Shown piece after piece: positions 1 through 11,151 of a DNA stretch of 64,000 nucleotides. The notes under the pieces were generated by a model. It did no database searches. It saw nothing but the letters and a program-made list of their open reading frames with translations, and was not told the origin of the DNA. A program made the position numbers and the translations under genes. The stretch is taken from NCBI GenBank assembly GCA_965208325.1, contig OZ242326.1, positions 3,776,001-3,840,000 on the forward strand, read 5' to 3'. This DNA comes from Candidatus Poribacteria bacterium. GTDB taxonomy: Bacteria; Poribacteria; WGA-4E; PCPOR2b. The first letter of the stretch is position 1; every line of letters starts with the position of its first letter.

Positions 1-2013
1 CTGAATTTGGTCGATCTCAAAGAAGGGGACTATGTTGTACATGTATCACATGGTATCGCTGTCTATACAGGGATTCGCCGTCTGGATATTGACGGCAAGC
101 CTCAAGATTTTTTGGTTCTGAACTACGCGGGAGGAGACATACTTTACGTTCCCACTCACCAGATTGATTTCGTACAGAAGTATGTCGGAGGAGATAACGA
201 GGGAAAAGGCCCCCGATTGGACAAACTTGGCGGTACCTCGTGGCAGCGGGTTAAATCCAAGGTGAAAGCGTCCATAGAAGAAATGGCGGAGGAACTGCTT
301 GAGCTCTACGCAATTCGCGAAGCGCGAAAGGGATTTGTTTTTTCGCCGGACACATCGTGGCAGCGTGAATTTGAGGCAATGTTTCCTTATGAAGAGACGC
401 CCGATCAACTACAAGCAGTTGAAGAAGTCAAAGAGGATATGGAGCGGGTACGCCCCATGGATCGGTTAATCTGCGGAGATGTGGGATACGGAAAAACAGA
501 AGTTGCGCTCCGATCGGTGTTTAAGGCGGTGATGGATGGCAAACAGGCCGCTGTTCTTGTGCCGACGACAGTTCTCGCTCTGCAACACTTTAACACGTTT
601 AAAAATCGATTCGAACATTTTCCTGTCAGTGTAGAGATGCTGACACGCTTCCGAGCAACTAATGAAGCGAAATTTGTAAAAGCGGGTTTAGAAAAAGGTG
701 CCGTTGACATCGTCATCGGCACCCATAGTCTGCTGTCGGATACCCTCAAGTTCCACGATTTAGGTCTACTAGTAATTGATGAAGAGCATCGCTTCGGGGT
801 TAAACATAAAGAGAAAATCAAGCAGATTAAGCAAGTGGTTGATGTCATCACCTTGACAGCAACGCCGATTCCGCGTACACTACACATGTCCCTAATTGGA
901 ATCCGCGACTTTAGTGTGATTAACACACCCCCTGAAAATCGACTGCCAATTGAGACCTACGTGATGGAGTATAACCCCGATGTGGCAAAAGACGCAATTT
1001 TGCGTGAGATGGAGCGGGGCGGGCAGGTCTATTTTGTCCACAATCGTGTGCAGAGTATCGCAAGTATTGCTGCGTCAGTTCAAAGACTCGTACCGCAAGC
1101 CCGGGTGAGCATCGCACATGGACAGATGGCCGAACGTCAACTAGAAAAAGTCATGATAGACTTTATTAACCACAAATCCGACGTTTTGGTGTGCACCATG
1201 ATTATCGAATCGGGGCTTGACATACCTAACGTCAACACAATTCTGATTAACCGTGCTGACGCGCTCGGATTGGCGCAGCTTTATCAATTGCGCGGGCGCG
1301 TTGGGCGCGCACAGTATCAGGCATACGGTTACCTTTTCTATCCTCAAGGGCGTGCGATTACTGAGAATGCACAGAAACGGCTTCGAGTTATTGAGGAGTT
1401 TACTGATCTTGGGTCAGGGTTCAAAATTGCGCTTAGAGACCTCGAAATCCGTGGAACCGGCAACATCCTTGGTCCCCAACAACACGGCCATATCGCTGTG
1501 GTGGGTTATGATATGTATTGTCGGTTGCTTGAAGAAACCGTACGCAAACTTAAGGGCGAAAAGATTGAAGAATCAGTCGAAACGCGAATTAGCTTGCCAG
1601 TGGAAGCATATTTGCCTGATGAGTACGTGCCCGACAGTCGGCAGAAGGTTTCGCTCTATAAGAAAATTGCCGCATTGAAGACGGAAGCGGATCGGAAAAG
1701 TCTTTCAGAAGAAATCATCGATCGATATGGCAAAATCCCCGAACCTGTCGAGATGTTGCTTGAAATTGCCGAGCTTAAACAGCTTTGTCAATCATGCGGC
1801 GTTGAAGGGATTGTTTCGGGGGGCGGTAATGTAAAGATTTCGTTGGATGAAGCGAAGTCGAATGTTGACCCTAGTAGGTTTGTTCAGGTAATTCAAGGCG
1901 ATAAAAGACTCTCACTTTCACCGCCTGGCCGCCTGATGGTCAATACAAAAGGGTTGGTTGGCAAATCCCTCTTACTCGCTCTCAAGCGAATCCTCGTCAG
2001 AGCGTTTCGTTGA
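1..2013 (+). CDS. mfd: Transcription-repair coupling factor (5'-partial; starts before the window)
   Basis: CarD/TRCF RID motif (GDYVVHVSHGIA), DRLICGDVGYGKTEVA, DEEHRFGV, TATPIPRTL, QLRGRVGR, DLEIRGTGNILG, and a C-terminal TRCF domain. Confidence 0.97.
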   Translation: MNLVDLKEGDYVVHVSHGIAVYTGIRRLDIDGKPQDFLVLNYAGGDILYVPTHQIDFVQKYVGGDNEGKGPRLDKLGGTSWQRVKSKVKASIEEMAEELLELYAIREARKGFVFSPDTSWQREFEAMFPYEETPDQLQAVEEVKEDMERVRPMDRLICGDVGYGKTEVALRSVFKAVMDGKQAAVLVPTTVLALQHFNTFKNRFEHFPVSVEMLTRFRATNEAKFVKAGLEKGAVDIVIGTHSLLSDTLKFHDLGLLVIDEEHRFGVKHKEKIKQIKQVVDVITLTATPIPRTLHMSLIGIRDFSVINTPPENRLPIETYVMEYNPDVAKDAILREMERGGQVYFVHNRVQSIASIAASVQRLVPQARVSIAHGQMAERQLEKVMIDFINHKSDVLVCTMIIESGLDIPNVNTILINRADALGLAQLYQLRGRVGRAQYQAYGYLFYPQGRAITENAQKRLRVIEEFTDLGSGFKIALRDLEIRGTGNILGPQQHGHIAVVGYDMYCRLLEETVRKLKGEKIEESVETRISLPVEAYLPDEYVPDSRQKVSLYKKIAALKTEADRKSLSEEIIDRYGKIPEPVEMLLEIAELKQLCQSCGVEGIVSGGGNVKISLDEAKSNVDPSRFVQVIQGDKRLSLSPPGRLMVNTKGLVGKSLLLALKRILVRAFR

Positions 2014-2336: not shown

Positions 2337-3338
2337 ATGAAGTATACCTTGAGCGTGTTAGCTGTGATTGTAGCAATATGTTTTACCGCTTGGCGGGTTG
2401 TTCAATCGCAAGATTTGGATTCATCTACAGAATCTGTAGATGAAAGTCAAATAACAGTAGCGGAATACAACTGGGAGGGTAACGCGAAGCAGATTTCACT
2501 CGCCGATCTGAAGGCGGCGATTGAAAAGTTGCCGCCCCACCGCCAAGAGAAATACGGCGATAGAACTAGTAAGGCGGAGTATTTGGACGAATTGATTGCA
2601 GAAAAACTGAAACTCCTCGCCGCCATTGAAAGGGAATTTGACAAAGACGAGGAATTCCTAAAAAAGGCAGAGGACTATAAACACCAGCTTATGGTTGAGC
2701 GGCTAACCGAAAATGAAGTCGATAACAAAATCTCCTATACTGAGGAAGACATCAAGCAATACTACGAGACGAATAAAAGCGAATATATTGAAGAACCTGA
2801 GGTTCAAGCAACTTGTATTGCCTTGCTGGATGAGGACCGAGCGCAGGAAGTATTGGAGGAGATTAAGGCTGGTAAAGACATCGTCGCAGCGGCGAAGGAA
2901 CTCTGGGAAGTTGGTGAATTAGAAGGGCCCGGCGTCAACGAAGAAGAACCCGGACGTACTCGCTTTTTCTCGCGAGATGAGGCCAATGAATGGAAAGAGT
3001 TAATCGATACCCTCTTTGAAATGGAAATTGGTGAAATGACTCAAGAGGTCTTTGAAACTGACATCCGAGATAAAACTCACTTCATGATTTTCAGTAAAAG
3101 GGATCACAGGCCTGAACGCCAAAAAGAGTTAGATGAAGTCAGAAATCGCGTTGAACGGCAAGTAGAGCGTGAAAAGAAACGCCAACGAATCACAGAGTGG
3201 GTTAAAGCATTTACAACCGAAGGCAAACTCAAGACTTTTCCGGAACGTATTCCCGAGCCTCAACCGGATGAAGAAAGTGAAGAGGAAACCTCGCCGGCGA
3301 CGGAAGAAGCTGCGGAAGAAAAATCTGAGGATATGTAA
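2337..3338 (+). CDS. PrsA/SurA-type foldase with a degenerate parvulin domain
   Basis: Signal or anchor peptide, helical SurA-N-like region (EDIKQYYETNKSEY), parvulin-like core and acidic tail. AGGAG RBS upstream. Confidence 0.75.
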   Translation: MKYTLSVLAVIVAICFTAWRVVQSQDLDSSTESVDESQITVAEYNWEGNAKQISLADLKAAIEKLPPHRQEKYGDRTSKAEYLDELIAEKLKLLAAIEREFDKDEEFLKKAEDYKHQLMVERLTENEVDNKISYTEEDIKQYYETNKSEYIEEPEVQATCIALLDEDRAQEVLEEIKAGKDIVAAAKELWEVGELEGPGVNEEEPGRTRFFSRDEANEWKELIDTLFEMEIGEMTQEVFETDIRDKTHFMIFSKRDHRPERQKELDEVRNRVERQVEREKKRQRITEWVKAFTTEGKLKTFPERIPEPQPDEESEEETSPATEEAAEEKSEDM

Positions 3339-3427
3339 ATCCTAAGAACAAAATTCGCCGCCATAAGCGAGTTTGTTCATTATGGGTGGCGAAAGCCAAC
3401 AAAAAGTATGATTATGGAGGAATTATT

Positions 3428-4435
3428 GTGAAGAAACTGGGAAATATTTGTTGCATTTTGCTTAGCGGGTTTGTACTCAACATCGTTTTCATCGGCTGCG
3501 GCGGAAAAGCAACCGGTGCTGACGGAACAGTGATTGCAGAGTTTGAATGGGATGGCAAACATCACATTACCCTTGAAGAGATGATGGCGGAGATTGACGA
3601 ACTCCCGGACTACAAAAAACGGCAATACAAAGAGAAGCAGGAGCTCGAAGAATATATGACCCTCATGGCAGAGAGTCGGTTGATACTCTGCCTTGCAAAA
3701 GATCAAAAACTCGATGAAGATGCAGAGATTCTGGAAAAAGTGCACGATTATCTGCATGAATTGATGGTTGATAAGCTTACCGAACTCGAAGTTGACCAGC
3801 AGCTAACAACAACTGAAGAGGACTTTAGGCTTTACTTTGAGGAGAATAAAGACAGATTTGTCGAACCTGAACAGGTACGGGGGATTGCCATAGCTGTTGC
3901 AAACAAAGCCCGTGCCGAGGAAGTGCTTCAGCAGATAAAAGACGGCAAAGATATCGTTGAAGTTTCTAAAGAACTAATAGACAGGGGCGAAATGGAAGGC
4001 CCAGGTTCAAACCCGGCGGACCCCGGCGCAACGGGATTCTTTTCGCGCCACTCTTATCCCGAAGAGGCGCAGCCTTTTGTTAAGGTGGCGTTCGATTTGG
4101 AGGTCGGCCAAACAAGCGATGAGATTATTGTTATCGAATTTGGGCGGCCGTATTACATGATTTTCCGCAAAGATGAACATAAACAAGAACGCCAACAAGA
4201 ACTTGAGGAAGAATATGTGCGCCGCAACGTGGAAAGAGCTGTCGAACGCGACAAACGTAAACAACTGATGCAAGCATGGATTGAGCAGCTCCGCGAACGC
4301 GCGAAGGTGAAGACGTACATCGATCGAATTCCGGAGGCACCAAAGGAAGACGATGCCGGCACAGAAACTGAAGCTGCTGAGGATGATTCTTCTTCCGCCG
4401 ACGATCCCATTGAAAGTAAGTCTGAGGAACAGTAA
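3428..4435 (+). CDS. PrsA/SurA-type foldase, probable lipoprotein; paralog of the upstream gene
   Basis: GTG start after GGAGG. Lipobox-like FIGC, YFEENKDRFVEPEQVR, AFDLEVGQTS, WIEQLRERAKVK. Confidence 0.78.
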   Translation: MKKLGNICCILLSGFVLNIVFIGCGGKATGADGTVIAEFEWDGKHHITLEEMMAEIDELPDYKKRQYKEKQELEEYMTLMAESRLILCLAKDQKLDEDAEILEKVHDYLHELMVDKLTELEVDQQLTTTEEDFRLYFEENKDRFVEPEQVRGIAIAVANKARAEEVLQQIKDGKDIVEVSKELIDRGEMEGPGSNPADPGATGFFSRHSYPEEAQPFVKVAFDLEVGQTSDEIIVIEFGRPYYMIFRKDEHKQERQQELEEEYVRRNVERAVERDKRKQLMQAWIEQLRERAKVKTYIDRIPEAPKEDDAGTETEAAEDDSSSADDPIESKSEEQ

Positions 4436-4530
4436 TGTGAGTCGGGTATTTGGCTTTAGGTGAGATCGTAACCTTTAATGCCTATGCCCAACTCAAATTT
4501 CCAATTGGATTTTACGGAGGTACATCCTAT

Positions 4531-5847
4531 ATGCGCTCCGCGAACTTGATTTGCCAAACTCTCCTTATATTGTTTTTTGTGGCAGTCGGGCACAACTCTC
4601 TGTTTGCGCGGACATTTGATGAAATTATCGCTTATGTCAACGACTCCGTAATAACCAAATGGGAACTCGAAAACGTCGTGAAACAACGCGCAATGGAACT
4701 ACAGACCGCGCATCAATTCAGTCCACGTGAAGCTATGGAAAGAGCGGAACAAGAACGCCAAGAGCTGCTTGACCGTCTGATTCGCCAAATGCTCCTCGTA
4801 GAAACTGCATTAAGCTTGAAAATTGAGGTGACGGATGAGGAAGTGGAACAATACATCCAAAACTTTAAGAAAAATGCAAAAATTGAAACAGAAGAGGAGT
4901 TCATAGAACAGCTGAAAAGAGAGGGATATACCCTGAGTGCCTTTCGAGAGCAAGCGAAGCGGAACCTAATGGCGGAGCGGCTTTTAATGCAGCGTGTACT
5001 GCCAAAACTCCAGGTCAGAGATGCGGATGTCATGAAGTTTTTTGAAGAAAACCGGCAGCAATTTACAACGAAAACTGACGAGGTGCATTTGAAGCACATC
5101 TTCATCGCTTTCAAGGCTAGCGACGCCAAGCGGCAAGCCGCGCTTAAAGAGATGGACGCCATTCTTAACGAAATTGAAATGGGCAAGTCATTTGCCGAAC
5201 TTGCCCGCCGCTATTCGGAGGATGAACAGGGTCAGGAGCGCGTTTCATCGAAAGTAGGCGAATTAATTCAGTGGCCGATAGCAGAGATTTCGAATCTCTC
5301 CCAGCCATTCCGAATTGCACTTTCTACACTAAGCGCCGGCGATCTTAGCGAGCCTATTGAAGGGAATGATGGAATTTATCTCTTCAATGTTGAAAGTAAG
5401 ACTAACCAAACGATTTCGTTCCGTTATCTTGTAATCCATCTAACACCAGGTGAAGAAGCTATTGAAAAAGCAAATGAACGCGCCAATCTTGTTCTACAGG
5501 AATTACGCCAGGGCGCGGATTTTAATACGCTCGTTAATCAATATTCGGACGATTTGGAAACGAAATCAGATGGCGGCAATCTTGGTGTGCGTTCACTCAA
5601 CGATTTGAATCCCAATACACGGAAGGTCATTGAGGCACTTGCAGTTGGAGAATATAGTGCACCGCTCAAAACCCCGCATGGACTACACATCTTCACGGTT
5701 GATTCTCGAACTGCCGTCGAACTTACTGAAGCGGAAAAAGAACAAATCCGCCTCGTGTTGCGTGAGCAAAAATTTCAAGAGGGATGGCAGGCTTACACGG
5801 ATACAATTTTGAAGGGTGCATACGTCAAAATCAATCCGATTAAATGA
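4531..5847 (+). CDS. surA: SurA-like chaperone with two parvulin PPIase domains
   Basis: ATG after GGAGG. DEIIAYVNDSVITKWEL (SurA N-terminus), VHLKHIFI, SFAELARRYSED, YSDD..SDGGNLG, PLKTPHGLHIF. Confidence 0.8.
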   Translation: MRSANLICQTLLILFFVAVGHNSLFARTFDEIIAYVNDSVITKWELENVVKQRAMELQTAHQFSPREAMERAEQERQELLDRLIRQMLLVETALSLKIEVTDEEVEQYIQNFKKNAKIETEEEFIEQLKREGYTLSAFREQAKRNLMAERLLMQRVLPKLQVRDADVMKFFEENRQQFTTKTDEVHLKHIFIAFKASDAKRQAALKEMDAILNEIEMGKSFAELARRYSEDEQGQERVSSKVGELIQWPIAEISNLSQPFRIALSTLSAGDLSEPIEGNDGIYLFNVESKTNQTISFRYLVIHLTPGEEAIEKANERANLVLQELRQGADFNTLVNQYSDDLETKSDGGNLGVRSLNDLNPNTRKVIEALAVGEYSAPLKTPHGLHIFTVDSRTAVELTEAEKEQIRLVLREQKFQEGWQAYTDTILKGAYVKINPIK

Positions 5848-8800
5848 AGAGAGAAGACACAGAATGGAAGGGAGGGAAAGAAAGCGACCCAAAACTGGAA
5901 GACCAAATAGCCAAGACTCAAATTGGATTTCATTTCCTAAATCTCCCGCTTTACTGTATTCTCATTACGTTTTGTGTGTTACTGGCTGTGCATTACGTTT
6001 TACATCTCACGCATTATCAATAACTTTTCTCGCCTGTTTCTCGCTTGCATCTGTTTGTTCCTTGGCCGCCCAAGATAATCTCCCACCTGCCGCTGGCGGC
6101 GTTGATACCGCAACGGATGTAAAGAATCAATCCGAACCTTCTCCCGATATCCAAGATACTTCCCTAGAAAACGAGAAAAAGCGCAAGTCCCAACTGGATC
6201 CTGATAATACTACCCCCGAAGAAGGTAAAGTCATAGGTGATGGCGATGAGATATTCGTCCAGGAGAATATAGTCCAGATTCACGGAAATGGGCTAATCAA
6301 ATTTGAGGACGTCGTGCTTCACGCAGACCATATTTGGGCGGATTTTGACGAAAATATCATGCGTGCGGCCGGCAACGTGCGTCTCATTGTTGAAAATGAG
6401 GAAACGCATGCGAACGAATTAGTTTACAACCTCGACAACAAAAAGGGAGTTGTGCGGGAAGGATTTACATACAGCGATCCCTGGTATTACCGTGGTACAG
6501 AAATCTTCAAGGTCGAAGCGGATGAATCCTACATCCGCGGCGGTTCACTTACGACCTGTTCCCTCAAACACCCTCATTTCTACTTTAGCGCCTCTAAAAT
6601 CATCGTCAAAATTAACAAAGAATTAATAGCGAAAAACATTGTGCTGAAGGTGGGTGGCATCCCGCTCTTTTATTTCCCGGTCTACCGCCGTGATTTGCGC
6701 AAGGATAAAGTCGCTAAGGTGATTGTAAAACTTGGAACTGATAGCTATCAGGGGCCGTTTGTCAGCATCATTTTGCCACTCGCACGCCGGCAGCGGTATG
6801 ATGGCGCGCTGCTGTTCGATCAGAGTGCACGCCGAGGCGGCGGTAGGGGATTCGAGGGAAAATATCGTGTCAATGACGTCAAATTTCAAGAGATTCTTGT
6901 ACCCATTCCCGATGATGCAACACCAACTGAACGCGCGAATCTTGAAGAAAAAGCCGAAGAGTTATCAGATCGATTGGAAGGCAAATATGACAATTTTAAG
7001 ATGCGCCAGATATTCTTGGAATACAAGATTAGCGAAGACGATGTCGCACGGGCGCATGAGGAAGCAAACGAAATCTACACACAACTCCAGGCGGAAGACG
7101 GCGATTTTGCCGAGATAGCTCAAAGCAGTTCTGACCATCAAGATACCCGTTATCAAGGCGGAAATATGGGTTTTCTGGTGCACGGAGAGCGGGACGAGGA
7201 CGGCGAACTTAGGCTCAATCCAATTTTGGAAAACGCTGCTTTCCAGCTGCAACCCGGGGACATTAGCCCGATTTTGCAGACCGAAACAGGGTTTCACATT
7301 TTAAAAGTAGAACATGTCATTGAGGTGTACGGTGAACGGGAGATTCAGGTGCGTCGAATTGACATTGTGGTGGAACCAAGTGACGCAACTCGAGAATCTA
7401 TTCAAGCTACCGCGGATGAAATTCAGGAACGTGCAAGCGCCGGTGAGACGTTCGATCAGTTAGCTGCCGAATACGAAGAAGCAGAAGCAGCCAGAGTTAA
7501 TCAAGGCGCGTGGATGCCATTAATTGAAATGGACAATCGTTGGCGGTATTCGGTGCGTCAGTTTGAACACCCTGGTGAAATCACACCGCCAGTAAAGACC
7601 AACCTCGGGGTTTATATCTTCCAATTAATTGAAAAGCAGCCGACGCCTAGTTTTGAAGACATTGCTAGCCAATTTGAAGCAGAATGGGCTGCTCTGCAAG
7701 CGGAAAAAGAGGTAATAGAAGCCCGGGAAGACCCAGAGGAACAAGATGGGGCAGAACCAGAGGAGAACGGCGAACCTCAATCGGATAGTACACATGACGC
7801 AATACAGTATACGGAATCTGATAACACAATAGATTCGCCGGAAGAAGAAAACTTGGACGAGGAAAACGGAGAAGAGGAAGCGAAAGTCTACGAGAAGTAC
7901 GGCTTTCGTGGCAAGTGGGAAATGCCGCGGAATGTCGCTTCACAAACCCAACGGCTTTATCGGGGCGAATCGAGCCGCGTTATCAAAACAAAGAAAGGGT
8001 ACCGCCTCGTCAAAGTTGATAGGAAACGCACTTTCAGGGGCGATTTGCTATTTCTCGCCGAAGACCAATATTCGTCTAATCGCAAAAAACCCTTCAGAAC
8101 CGGACAAAAGTGGACCATGCGGTGGGGGCATAACCATGTCATTTATACGCCTTGGGATAGCCGAGCCAAAGGGCGGCGGCCTGTGAGTTGGGTGAGTCGC
8201 GTGCTGTGGGGCGCACGAACTTACAAAGAAGGATTAGGAGAGAATGAGTCGACCATTGACTCCTTTTCCGTGGTGACTTGGGGTTCCGCATTGTCGGCAC
8301 GGGATACGGACGATTATGACGAGGATGGCAATTTGACTTTTTCTCGGGAGACCATCGGAGAGTTCTTGGGGCGTTTACAGGTGAATCACACCTTAGATCT
8401 CACAGGGGAAGGGACAACAACTCTGCAAAAACTGCCTGCATTCACGGTCTCACTGTCTCGAATGCGCTTCAATCGGCTGCCGTTGTTCAAAACGCTAAAT
8501 TCCGGTCTAACCTGGGTTGCTGATAAATTACGCACTGACCGCCCCATTCTTTCAATGGTTTCTTTCCCTACGCTTGAAAACACCAGCTTTGATTTCGACA
8601 CTGCCTTGGGCAACTTCTACCGCGAACGATATAGGGATGAGGAAGATGTGTTCTTGCAGACGATGGATCTTGGCTTCGATCTCCGGAAACAATCGACCTC
8701 ACAAATTATGCCTAACCGCGAGTTGTTGCTTGATGTTACGCTGCAAAGCAACCTAATTTGGCATTCCAAAGACCGAGCTGGCAACCAAAATATCTTGCGT

Positions 8801-9691
8801 GGTGTGTACAGTACACGAGCGACCGCGAGCAATACGCTCTTTCGAATATATGACATCGGCTTTATTCCTGGCGTACGCCGTATGCGGCATCAAATTGATT
8901 CGAGTCTCAAATTGAATTATCAACCACCTGTTGAAAGGGAGGAAGATGACCTTTACCCGTTTGGCCCCAGCACTCACTTCTTTGAAAGAAAAAGTCTCGC
9001 TTATGTTTTCCGTACGAGCATTGAAGTGAAGACGCGCCGCAGCAAATCTGCGCTCCGGCTTCTAGACTTCACAACTCGATTAAGGGCAGACTTTTCCGAA
9101 CGCGCCAAGGAGAGAAATCGAGAATTCGACCTGATTGAAAGCGATTTAAGGATTACTCCGCTGGCGAGCCGTAAGATGACTATTACAATGCGCACAACCC
9201 ACAATCCTAATGAATCAGAGATTGGCGGGGAACGATTCAAAATGGTCGGTTTTCGTACGAATCTCAGATACCGGCGAACAACGTGGCATTTTTCATTGGG
9301 GAGTTCGTTCAATAAAAGGACAACACGTGCCAGACGGGATTACACGGCGAGTTGGAGTTTCCGTCCGAATAGGCTCGTGGAGTTTGACTTCAACCTAATT
9401 TATGATTGGATTGAACAACAGTTCTATTCGCAAAGTATCGCGGTACGACGGAATCTCCATGACTGGAATCTGACCATACGGTGGAATCGCCGCGGCATCA
9501 GGCGCGGTACAGATTCTGACAATGTCCGCCAAGATTTCATTTTTCAAATTAACCTAATCGAAGAGTCTGCAGCTTCGGTTGGGCTTGGGTACGATGCGAC
9601 AACGGACACGTGGGGCTTCCGAAGTCTGCCCGCAGGCGTGCCCTATAATGCCTTTAGCGCTGGAACGACGCTTGGACGTTCTTATTTTTAA
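5816..9691 (+). CDS. lptD: LptD-like LPS-assembly outer-membrane protein with inserted parvulin domains (start uncertain, possibly 5864)
   Basis: OstA/LptD jellyroll motifs (LHADHI..AAGNV, ELVYNLDNKKG, GSLTTCS..PHFYF, VGGIPLFYFP). Parvulin motifs in the middle. Beta-strand-rich C-terminus with RRNLHDW. Confidence 0.78.
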   Translation: MHTSKSIRLNEERRHRMEGRERKRPKTGRPNSQDSNWISFPKSPALLYSHYVLCVTGCALRFTSHALSITFLACFSLASVCSLAAQDNLPPAAGGVDTATDVKNQSEPSPDIQDTSLENEKKRKSQLDPDNTTPEEGKVIGDGDEIFVQENIVQIHGNGLIKFEDVVLHADHIWADFDENIMRAAGNVRLIVENEETHANELVYNLDNKKGVVREGFTYSDPWYYRGTEIFKVEADESYIRGGSLTTCSLKHPHFYFSASKIIVKINKELIAKNIVLKVGGIPLFYFPVYRRDLRKDKVAKVIVKLGTDSYQGPFVSIILPLARRQRYDGALLFDQSARRGGGRGFEGKYRVNDVKFQEILVPIPDDATPTERANLEEKAEELSDRLEGKYDNFKMRQIFLEYKISEDDVARAHEEANEIYTQLQAEDGDFAEIAQSSSDHQDTRYQGGNMGFLVHGERDEDGELRLNPILENAAFQLQPGDISPILQTETGFHILKVEHVIEVYGEREIQVRRIDIVVEPSDATRESIQATADEIQERASAGETFDQLAAEYEEAEAARVNQGAWMPLIEMDNRWRYSVRQFEHPGEITPPVKTNLGVYIFQLIEKQPTPSFEDIASQFEAEWAALQAEKEVIEAREDPEEQDGAEPEENGEPQSDSTHDAIQYTESDNTIDSPEEENLDEENGEEEAKVYEKYGFRGKWEMPRNVASQTQRLYRGESSRVIKTKKGYRLVKVDRKRTFRGDLLFLAEDQYSSNRKKPFRTGQKWTMRWGHNHVIYTPWDSRAKGRRPVSWVSRVLWGARTYKEGLGENESTIDSFSVVTWGSALSARDTDDYDEDGNLTFSRETIGEFLGRLQVNHTLDLTGEGTTTLQKLPAFTVSLSRMRFNRLPLFKTLNSGLTWVADKLRTDRPILSMVSFPTLENTSFDFDTALGNFYRERYRDEEDVFLQTMDLGFDLRKQSTSQIMPNRELLLDVTLQSNLIWHSKDRAGNQNILRGVYSTRATASNTLFRIYDIGFIPGVRRMRHQIDSSLKLNYQPPVEREEDDLYPFGPSTHFFERKSLAYVFRTSIEVKTRRSKSALRLLDFTTRLRADFSERAKERNREFDLIESDLRITPLASRKMTITMRTTHNPNESEIGGERFKMVGFRTNLRYRRTTWHFSLGSSFNKRTTRARRDYTASWSFRPNRLVEFDFNLIYDWIEQQFYSQSIAVRRNLHDWNLTIRWNRRGIRRGTDSDNVRQDFIFQINLIEESAASVGLGYDATTDTWGFRSLPAGVPYNAFSAGTTLGRSYF

Positions 9692-9897: not shown

Positions 9898-10521
9898 ATG
9901 ATTAATACACTCGTATTTGCCGGCGGGTCTTTGCATGACTGGCAAGGTTGTAGTGAAGCAATCATTGAAATCTTATCCCGGCGTGATGAATTTAAAATCA
10001 CCAAAATCGAAGAGGATCTTGATGCCCTCACCGCTCCTCGGTTGGCTCCTTACGACCTCATCGTTTTCTATTATACCCTTGGCGAAATGTCGGACGCCCA
10101 GAAAAACGGGTTGTTAAACCACATTGCTTCGGGAAAAGGCTTCGCGGGTGTGCATTGTGCCGCCGATTCGTTCAGAGAGTGCCCGGAGTATCGGGCGATG
10201 ATTGGAGGGCATTTCGTCACGCATCCCCGTTACCGGGAGTACCAGGTGAACGTCTCAGATACTGCGCACCCGATTACAGCGGGCATTGAAGAGTTCATGG
10301 TCACGGATGAGCAGTATATTTTAGACTACGATTCCCGCGTTAATGTACTCGCCACGGGGTTGAGTAAGGGCGGCACGATGCCTGTGGTTTGGACCAAAAA
10401 TTGGGGCGCAGGGCGTGTCTTCTATCTTGCTCTGGGGCATGACGCCAAAGCTTGTAGTCAAGAGATATTCGGAACGCTTCTACTGCGCGGCGCGCTCTGG
10501 GCAGCCGAACCGAGCGAATAA
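9898..10521 (+). CDS. ThuA domain-containing protein (class I glutamine amidotransferase-like fold)
   Basis: GKGFAGVHCAADSF, HPITAGI, DEQY, WGAGRVFYLALGHD. Confidence 0.88.
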   Translation: MINTLVFAGGSLHDWQGCSEAIIEILSRRDEFKITKIEEDLDALTAPRLAPYDLIVFYYTLGEMSDAQKNGLLNHIASGKGFAGVHCAADSFRECPEYRAMIGGHFVTHPRYREYQVNVSDTAHPITAGIEEFMVTDEQYILDYDSRVNVLATGLSKGGTMPVVWTKNWGAGRVFYLALGHDAKACSQEIFGTLLLRGALWAAEPSE

Positions 10522-11151
10522 ATGAAAAAGCAGATTACCGATATCCAGATTGATGAAAAAAACCCTGACCGATGCGCGCTTTTTCTCGATTGTCATCAGT
10601 TTGGAGTCGTCGATTCAAGTTTAATTGCTGTACTCGGTTTGCGAATAGGCCTGGAAATTGAGGCGGAGGTGCTTCAAAAATTAATTGAAGCGGACGGAGT
10701 CACAAAGACCAAGAACTTCATTCTTAATCTATTGCGAAATCAAACCTATAGCAAACAGCAGTTAATTGATTTGCTCGGACGAAGGGGATGCGGCGAAAGA
10801 ACTATTGATACCGCGCTGGCGGAACTGGAGGAGCTGGGCGTCGTTAAGGGCGAGAACTATGCACGGAGCTGGGTTAATCGTCGTCTGCGCCTTAAGCCGC
10901 GCGGAAAAAGGGTACTGAAGCGCGAATTGGTAAGCAAAGGAATTGACCAATCGACCGCTGACTGTGTCCTTGACACGATAGATGATAAGGACGAATCTGG
11001 GATGGCGTTAAAAGCCGCACGAAAACAGGCGGTGCATTACAAGTCCCTTTTACCGCATGTAGCCAAACGACGCATGCACGATTTTTTACTAAGGCGTGGA
11101 TTTGACGTTGATACAATTCAGCCAGTTATCGATCAAGTGTTAAAAAACTAG
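10522..11151 (+). CDS. recX: Regulatory protein RecX
   Basis: N-terminal ITDIQI..RCALFLD extension, PRGKRVLKRELVSKGI, FLLRRGF. Confidence 0.85.
   Translation: MKKQITDIQIDEKNPDRCALFLDCHQFGVVDSSLIAVLGLRIGLEIEAEVLQKLIEADGVTKTKNFILNLLRNQTYSKQQLIDLLGRRGCGERTIDTALAELEELGVVKGENYARSWVNRRLRLKPRGKRVLKRELVSKGIDQSTADCVLDTIDDKDESGMALKAARKQAVHYKSLLPHVAKRRMHDFLLRRGFDVDTIQPVIDQVLKN

Follow-up and report, generated by a model that had tools for sequence, protein, structure and literature searches.

The window analysed here is a stretch of 64,000 nucleotides (contig OZ242326.1, positions 3,776,001 to 3,840,000 of the forward strand) from the genome of a Candidatus Poribacteria bacterium (assembly GCA_965208325.1; one contig of 4,707,648 bases, 95.62% complete). 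A row of same-strand genes, consisting of mfd, two peptidyl-prolyl isomerase (PPIase) genes and surA, is closed there by lptD, so that three genes for parvulin proteins lie directly upstream of the latter. The lptD open reading frame (ORF; 1291 amino acids (aa), plus strand, 5816..9691) opens with GTG at 5816 and has its stop at 9689-9691, yet its true start is probably ATG 5864 (M17), because a 98%-identical homologue (P0002) is 1275 aa long; this ATG sits 17 nucleotides past the stop of surA. With high probability, the gene encodes the only LptD of the genome, that is, the lipopolysaccharide (LPS) translocon of the outer membrane, in which turn T2 of the barrel has grown into a module of ~385 residues: one parvulin unit (A) extends out of the beta4-beta5 hairpin, two further units (B and C) lie within A, and an acidic loop is included. 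Residues are numbered below by the 1291-aa ORF unless a model is named.

Structural comparison carries the identification as LptD. The full model (AlphaFold2 of ORF 92-1291 from an alignment of 54 rows; predicted local distance difference test (pLDDT) 78.8, predicted template-modelling score 0.61) contains a large C-terminal barrel of LptD type, with 26-28 strand elements assigned by DSSP. All 15 best Foldseek matches of this model in the Protein Data Bank (PDB) are LptD (E 3.1e-20 to 7.1e-15), and VIA-align aligned it with full-length LptDs over 594-639 residues at Z 16.2-20.5. The jellyroll has the LptA-like fold, as the LptA and LptH structures align with it at Z 12.6-13.0 in VIA-align (for example, LptA 2r1a_H at Z 13.0 with a root-mean-square deviation (rmsd) of 2.0 and 112 residues aligned, model 44..156; and LptH 4uu4 at Z 12.9).

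Sequence support is weaker, with the NCBIfam LptD model (PRK04423) matching ORF 142-367 at E 1.8e-4 and the jellyroll piece matching Neisseria LptD (7omm) at E 0.0025, the TTCS motif being aligned. The barrel alone (ORF 740-1291), when searched by phmmer against 1.84 billion representatives, retrieved only 30 proteins, the search reaching only relatives of this particular barrel; among the 16 of them that were scanned with Pfam, six carry Rotamase, and the other 10 are canonical LptD_2/LptD proteins or fragments that lack it. Five near-full-length canonical matches (669-1014 aa) were found at E 1.3e-9 to 6.9e-4. In the ESM Atlas, the protein's own two clusters (0.99) are followed by clusters of canonical LptD (0.81-0.82), which serves as a lead only, and no other cluster combining LptD with Rotamase was found there. 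The mature chain has a single cysteine (C248, 6557-6559, in the TTCS motif; Cys in 39 and Ser in two of 41 aligned homologues), thus no intramolecular disulfide can link jellyroll and barrel. The original prediction, made from the letters of the window alone, had read the gene as an LptD with jellyroll and large barrel, and this reading is borne out by Foldseek, VIA-align and phmmer; in the structure prediction that it had proposed as a check, the C-terminal half does model as a barrel and the best PDB matches are all LptD.

The parvulin character of the insert is evident from sequence. The Pfam profile of PpiC-type Rotamase matches the whole protein at E 8.2e-35 in three stretches, all of them within ORF 356-739; B and C each exceed the cut-off when scanned alone (scores in Table 1), and the piece after the acidic linker, with 20.9 bits against positions 49-96 of the 97-position profile, just misses the cut-off of 21.7. 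In a model of the insert alone (ORF 345-750; pLDDT 83.3), a long strand and a helix of A are followed by a full parvulin B, a full parvulin C and a 26-residue helix; then, after a disordered acidic loop of ~48 residues, come a strand, a helix and two strands of A, the last of which runs into barrel strand 5. VIA-align matched this model to a two-parvulin PPIase (8hm3_B; Z 16.8 over 228 residues), and the parvulin fold of B and C was recovered with SurA P1 (2pv1; Z 14.1, rmsd 2.0, 99/103 residues), 3gpk (Z 12.2) and 4g2p (Z 10.7), while unrelated structures reached Z 5.4 at most.

Several lines of evidence support a nested arrangement, in which B and C are predicted to interrupt A between its first and second helices. 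Besides the order of elements in the model, single-domain parvulins align across the split of A, namely 8sot_B (Z 11.1, 104/114 residues, model 7..399), Par10 1jnt (Z 9.5, rmsd 2.6, 90/92 residues, model 8..394) and, almost fully aligned, 2n87 (Z 8.8), with ends at 392-399, although indirectly so, as VIA-align gives the first and last aligned residues only. Moreover, hhalign paired the end of A (VASQ...VKVDRK) with the part of B that runs from helix 4 to strand 4 (probability 89.6, E 1.9e-6), SFEDIASQF of A with TFDQLAAEY of C (E 2.2e-3), and the first helix of A with that of B (E 1.8e-3), all three matches being colinear. Finally, in the relative P0122, which has no acidic loop, B and C are followed by a half-parvulin (profile 40-114) directly before the barrel. 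A complex prediction of the jellyroll (model 40-210) with the insert (256-655), run without controls, gave no answer (score 0.00) and is neutral.

Two complete parvulin units with a third one split around them had already been noted from the letters, and both parts of that description agree with these results, the split unit with the qualification that it is a modelled one. The peptides then quoted all lie where they had been placed (LLFDQSARRGGGRGFEGKYR at ORF 332-351, VKFQEILVP at 355-363, DFAEIAQSSSD at 430-440, GFHILKV at 492-498, TFDQLAAEY at 545-553, GVYIFQL at 598-604, SFEDIASQF at 612-620 and GESSRVIKTKKGYRLVKV at 717-734), and the earlier bounds of the insert (about 6875-8030) agree with the 6875-8023 found here.

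The insert (~385 residues, ORF 354-736) lies between barrel strands 4 and 5. In the full model, the jellyroll strands (48-202) are followed by four barrel strands, the insert, a strand at 637-661 and the remaining barrel, and the barrel strands E250-272 and E637-661 extend without a break into parvulin A. Canonical LptDs, held by the original prediction to be free of such domains, do run straight across the site in a MAFFT alignment (...EGKYRV / 385 aa / FRGDLLF...). In VIA-align, residues 225-229 of E. coli/Shigella LptD correspond to model 208-211 and E. coli 277 to model 649; therefore four strands precede the site in both proteins. The published nomenclature counts 26 strands in the LptD barrel, with loops L1-13 and turns T1-12, and places the lateral gate at beta1C/beta26C (PMC4353691, in excerpt). 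Since the jellyroll is periplasmic, chain connections that follow even-numbered strands are periplasmic turns. By this parity, the insert would occupy periplasmic turn T2, three strands from the beta1/beta26 lateral gate, which is also the answer that the model suggests to the earlier question of a periplasmic or an extracellular insert.

To place the architecture within the phylum, 120 of the 329 homologues found at E<=0.001 were examined. These best 120 are 1143-1370 aa long, cover 97-100% of the query and all carry Rotamase; where an organism is named, it is Candidatus Poribacteria. They are listed in databases as "peptidylprolyl isomerase" or "hypothetical protein", names which conceal that these proteins are the LptD of Poribacteria. 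A wider sample of 121 genomes (eight families and 19 genera, many of them single-contig) was covered for the presence of the same gene in other Poribacteria, as had been suggested with the original prediction: a barrel match was found in 121/121 genomes (19/19 genera), each in a long open frame, which spans 1113-1450 aa in 120 of them and 778 aa in the single exception, where it runs off the contig. All seven deep-branch LptDs scanned carry Rotamase. Among 41 aligned sequences, the majority fraction is 0.70-0.77 in the parvulin units, without gaps, against 0.72-0.79 in the barrel, while the acidic loop is unconserved (0.29, with 30% gaps). On account of this phylum-wide presence and barrel-like conservation, the insert is, as far as sequence comparison tells, ancestral to the sampled phylum and under selection. 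An artefact, either a chimeric assembly or two to three genes read through as one, can be dismissed with near certainty given the long open frames across 121 genomes, and a chimera is further contradicted by the query coverage of the 120 homologues and by an even GC content along the gene (0.45-0.50).

A shorter relative, P0145 (856 aa; with a cluster member, P0164, of 865 aa), from a 159-kb contig of a Candidatus Poribacteria metagenome-assembled genome, has two Rotamase stretches and is matched by the window barrel at residues 631-753 only; its barrel may be truncated or strongly diverged.

A second, canonical lptD, whose possible presence the original prediction had left to be checked, was not found in the genome by PF04453, PF19838 or the barrel query. 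The PF04453 profile had no match in the genome, PF19838 had two, both sub-threshold and one of them inside the present gene, and the barrel query had one. PF03968 matches only LptA. The other parts of the pathway are there, with a row of lipid A acyltransferase, lptC, lptA and lptB, and with lptE, lptF, lptG and lpxC in the same genome. The LptA (L001:1261-2175; contig positions 56556-57470) is 304 aa long and, with its two LptD_N stretches, about double the common form with one jellyroll.

Table 1. Features of the lptD locus (window positions) and related genes in other genomes (positions in their own loci); residue ranges are those of the ORF.
Feature	Positions	Strand	Basis
mfd	1..2013	+	Domain scans
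Two PPIase genes, Rotamase_2, downstream of mfd	2337..3338 and 3386..4435	+	Domain scans
SurA, complete (SurA_N and two parvulins), upstream neighbour	4450..5847	+	Domain scans
Whole ORF, LptD with parvulin insert	5816..9691	+	ORF listing and homologue length
N-terminal leader, ORF 17-86, with hydrophobic signal-peptide-like end ...ITFLACFSLASVCSLAAQ	5864..6073	+	Read from sequence only
Linker, ORF 87-135, poorly conserved, low confidence	6074..6220	+	pLDDT 26-51 in model blocks 1-40; majority fraction 0.40
Periplasmic beta-jellyroll, LptA/OstA-like, ORF 139-293, conserved TTCS motif (C248)	6230..6694	+	Model strands E48-202
Barrel strands beta1-beta4, ORF 303-353	6722..6874	+	Model strands E212-218, 222-233, 237-246 and 250-272; aligned with first barrel strands of canonical LptDs
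Parvulin A, N-terminal part, ORF 354-388: strand 1 (continuous with barrel beta4), then helix 1	6875..6979	+	Models, structural alignment, hhalign
Parvulin B, contiguous, ORF 389-504, GGNMGF and strand-4 His (H494) kept	6980..7327	+	Rotamase 69.7 bits, E 4.2e-19
Parvulin C, contiguous, ORF 505-608, degenerate motif	7328..7639	+	Rotamase_3 43.2 bits, Rotamase 38.9 bits
Parvulin A, long helix (SFEDIASQF...) following the inserted B-C pair, ORF 609-638	7640..7729	+	H269-294 of insert model; hhalign to unit C
Acidic disordered loop within parvulin A, ORF 639-687, length variable	7730..7876	+	pLDDT <50; absent in P0122
Parvulin A, C-terminal part, ORF 688-736: strand 2, helix 4, strands 3-4 (strand 4 continuous with beta5)	7877..8023	+	Rotamase profile, hhalign, structural alignment
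Barrel strands beta5 to C-terminus, ORF 737-1291, end ...GRSYF	8024..9688	+	phmmer, model, Foldseek, VIA-align
Helical excursion in beta10-beta11 connection (turn T5 by parity), ORF 885-922	8468..8581	+	Model H798-813 and H822-825
Downstream genes: ThuA-like (9898-10521) and RecX (10522-11151)	9898..11151	+	Apparently unrelated to the envelope row
SurA_N-only genes of family f5, 223-225 aa	L015:5368-6042 (G008), L019:4347-5024 (G013), L020:4470-5141 (G100)		
SurA_N of family f5 fused to C-terminus of upstream PPIase	L016:3440-6424 (G104)		
Fourth parvulin-like unit	L017:1896-5834 (G002 LptD, ~776-913); L021:1-3786 (G004 LptD, ~745-875)		

The neighbourhood of lptD is largely maintained. Besides the window genome, G008, G013, G100 and G104 have the order mfd, PPIase gene(s), surA, lptD; PPIase, surA and lptD are kept in G004, and the surA-lptD pair in G002, with a PPIase gene further upstream. 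In G045, the place upstream of lptD is taken by a sigma-70 gene. In family f5, the SurA next to the parvulin-bearing lptD is itself devoid of parvulins in all four genomes examined, being either a short SurA_N-only protein or fused to the upstream PPIase (Table 1). In the window, the closest match of unit B is P2 of the adjacent SurA (29% identity, 103 residues) and that of unit C is P1 (26% identity, 105 residues), in a comparison against a three-sequence database where relative scores alone are meaningful. An en-bloc copy of SurA P1-P2 is an unlikely origin of B-C, since B resembles P2 and C resembles P1, which reverses the order.

A further parvulin-like unit was found in deep branches. The LptDs of G002 and G004 have ~110 extra residues at the equivalent of window ORF 915, with a fourth Rotamase match; blastp and a local hidden Markov model (HMM) were run on these two LptDs to locate it. 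The unit is predicted to lie in the beta10-beta11 connection, turn T5 by parity, where the model of the window protein has two short helices.

The strand-1 and strand-4 positions compared here are those that we take to be the parvulin catalytic histidine pair. Among the 41 sequences, they are occupied in A by E (39) or Q (2) and by R (38) or H (3), in B by Q (36) or E (5) and by H in all 41 (H494), and in C by D (40) or G (1) (D516) and by Y (35) or H (6) (Y600). Thus five of the six positions are replaced and one histidine is kept, in B only. Judged by these residues, catalysis in A and C is unlikely, and at most B could be catalytic. As the pair is mostly replaced, binding is likelier than catalysis.

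The function that we tentatively favour for the insert, at slightly less than even odds, is that of a module for binding or docking, situated at the translocon's periplasmic mouth, and not of an enzyme; as the best explanation of the whole, architecture and binding role taken together are given a probability of roughly 0.5. The module would act like the P1/P2 domains of SurA and grip unfolded, aromatic-rich segments of outer-membrane proteins or a partner such as BAM, the SurA core or LptE. Such a grip at the periplasmic mouth might aid the delivery and assembly of the very large barrel, and perhaps of other envelope proteins. The PDB title of 2pv1 describes SurA P1 bound to peptide, and the parvulins of E. 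coli SurA have been described as modulating the core chaperone, not as chaperones themselves (PMC3747590, in excerpt). A self-chaperone or a docking platform, the two functions put forward in the original prediction, is plausible because LptD is among the few strongly SurA-dependent outer-membrane proteins of E. coli (same source), and the idea is weakened by an insert that comes without the N-terminal core of SurA.

Several points weigh against this combined reading. On the side of function, scans of the LptD protein with SurA_N, SurA_N_2 and SurA_N_3 found no match, whereas the neighbouring SurA has all three; in E. coli, the chaperone activity of SurA lies mostly in its N-terminal core, the parvulins being largely dispensable, according to an excerpt of PMC3747590; and parvulins without the SurA core may chaperone nothing. 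On the side of architecture, the assignment to the periplasm was derived from an alignment and from the parity of strands in a predicted model, and the match of parvulin structures across the split of A is, as described above, indirect. In addition, a profile of the family, when run against PDB sequences, gave parvulin proteins only among the best 60 of 63 matches, and the window protein stays below the cut-offs of Pfam LptD, LptD_2 and LptD_N, with no LptD match at E<=1 and just 10.9 bits for PF19838; the jellyroll and barrel pieces, scanned alone against Pfam, matched no family at E<=1. Of the HMM scans proposed with the original prediction, the Rotamase part therefore held (E 8.2e-35) and the part on the Pfam LptD families did not for this protein. 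Other members of the family do pass: the deep-branch LptD of G004 exceeds the LptD_2 cut-off with 35.9 bits, and P0108 has a precomputed PF19838 assignment, so the failure of the window protein reflects the divergence of its branch.

Among the alternatives, a purely cis-acting self-chaperone is unlikely. The parvulins would then hold the protein's own nascent strands 1-4 or the jellyroll until BAM closes the barrel, and be idle afterwards. The strong SurA dependence of E. coli LptD (PMC3747590, in excerpt) is in keeping with this, as is an insert between strands 4 and 5, adjoining the seam strands; however, a complete surA lies directly upstream, so that a free chaperone is still present, and the fourth unit in another turn of deep-branch LptDs suits a permanent periplasmic function at least equally well.

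A structural brace, or a regulator of LPS flow, has a similarly low standing. Here a rigid module would fix or gate the jellyroll-barrel junction, with variants in which it stands in for the interdomain disulfides of E. coli LptD or serves as a spacer between translocon and cell wall. The disulfides of E. coli LptD link its jellyroll and barrel domains. Two native disulfide bonds are needed there (PMC10567701, in excerpt), and the single cysteine of the mature Poribacteria chain, which permits no intramolecular disulfide, would fit a substitute of this kind, as would parvulin A as a rigid continuation of the beta4-beta5 hairpin in the model and the conserved E/R pair at its histidine-pair positions. 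For a brace, however, three domains that have each retained a parvulin fold would be unnecessary, and B and C are close to the peptide-binding SurA P1 (Z 14.1, rmsd 2.0).

Less likely still is that LptD and SurA share one chaperone system, in which the parvulins of LptD serve as the working P1/P2 arm, with the SurA core or its clients docking on the translocon; this is suggested by family f5, where the surA beside lptD encodes the core only and LptD keeps the parvulins. Docking, if true, would physically tie the place where LPS is inserted to the delivery of outer-membrane proteins; to our knowledge, such a connection of the two assembly pathways has been looked for without success so far. Least probable among these functions is a tethered active enzyme, with B as a prolyl isomerase acting at the outer membrane on prolines of envelope proteins and with A and C as scaffolds. 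B does score 69.7 bits with Rotamase, has GGNMGF and the invariant strand-4 histidine, and has P2 of the adjacent SurA as its closest match (29% identity), P2 being the only domain of E. coli SurA with significant PPIase activity (PMC3747590, in excerpt), yet the strand-1 histidine of B is replaced in 41/41 sequences and E. coli seems able to do without the PPIase activity of SurA (same source). Binding or docking at the periplasmic mouth thus stays the preferred function.

An LptD with built-in parvulins appears to be unreported, as no paper on a parvulin-bearing LptD or on Poribacteria LptD was found in full-text literature, a coverage that stops short of subscription journals. Also new here are the adjacent SurA without parvulins in family f5 and the deep-branch fourth parvulin-like unit in T5. 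Neither folded domains inserted in a periplasmic turn of another outer-membrane barrel nor a second case of a parvulin nested in a parvulin is known to us. LptD is an essential, drug-targeted protein of the outer membrane, and the phylum-wide weld of SurA-type parvulins to it amounts, in this uncultured phylum, to a natural experiment on the role of these poorly understood domains at the outer membrane. ORF 354-736 is a defined, expressible construct with which the binding of the parvulins to BAM, the SurA core, LptE or unfolded barrel segments can be addressed.

Compared with canonical LptD, for which solved structures of LptDE and LptD are at hand from E. coli, Shigella, Klebsiella and Neisseria (4q35, 4rhb, 5iv9, 8h1r, 7omm and 9kn3), the Poribacteria protein has in common the LptA-like jellyroll, the large barrel, TTC(S) at their junction, and lptE and the Lpt pathway in the genome; it differs by ~385 extra residues in T2, by the one cysteine of the mature chain, and in that Pfam LptD, LptD_2 and LptD_N miss the window protein. 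With SurA (1m5y) and with 8hm3/8hm4 it shares the B-C tandem pair, one parvulin bearing the motif and one degenerate as in SurA, and NCBIfam SurA aligns ORF 399-607 with SurA 181-383. Unlike SurA, it has no SurA_N core, its B-C order is reversed relative to the neighbouring SurA, and the pair is embedded in a third parvulin and built covalently into a barrel. Chaperones of the PrsA, PpiD and trigger-factor type, among which PpiD (8zht) and several PrsA gave fold matches, also have a PPIase domain inserted into another domain, the parvulin being suited to serve as a cassette by its adjacent N- and C-termini. There, the PPIase is hosted by a helical chaperone domain, whereas here B and C are hosted by a parvulin and A by a turn of a membrane barrel.

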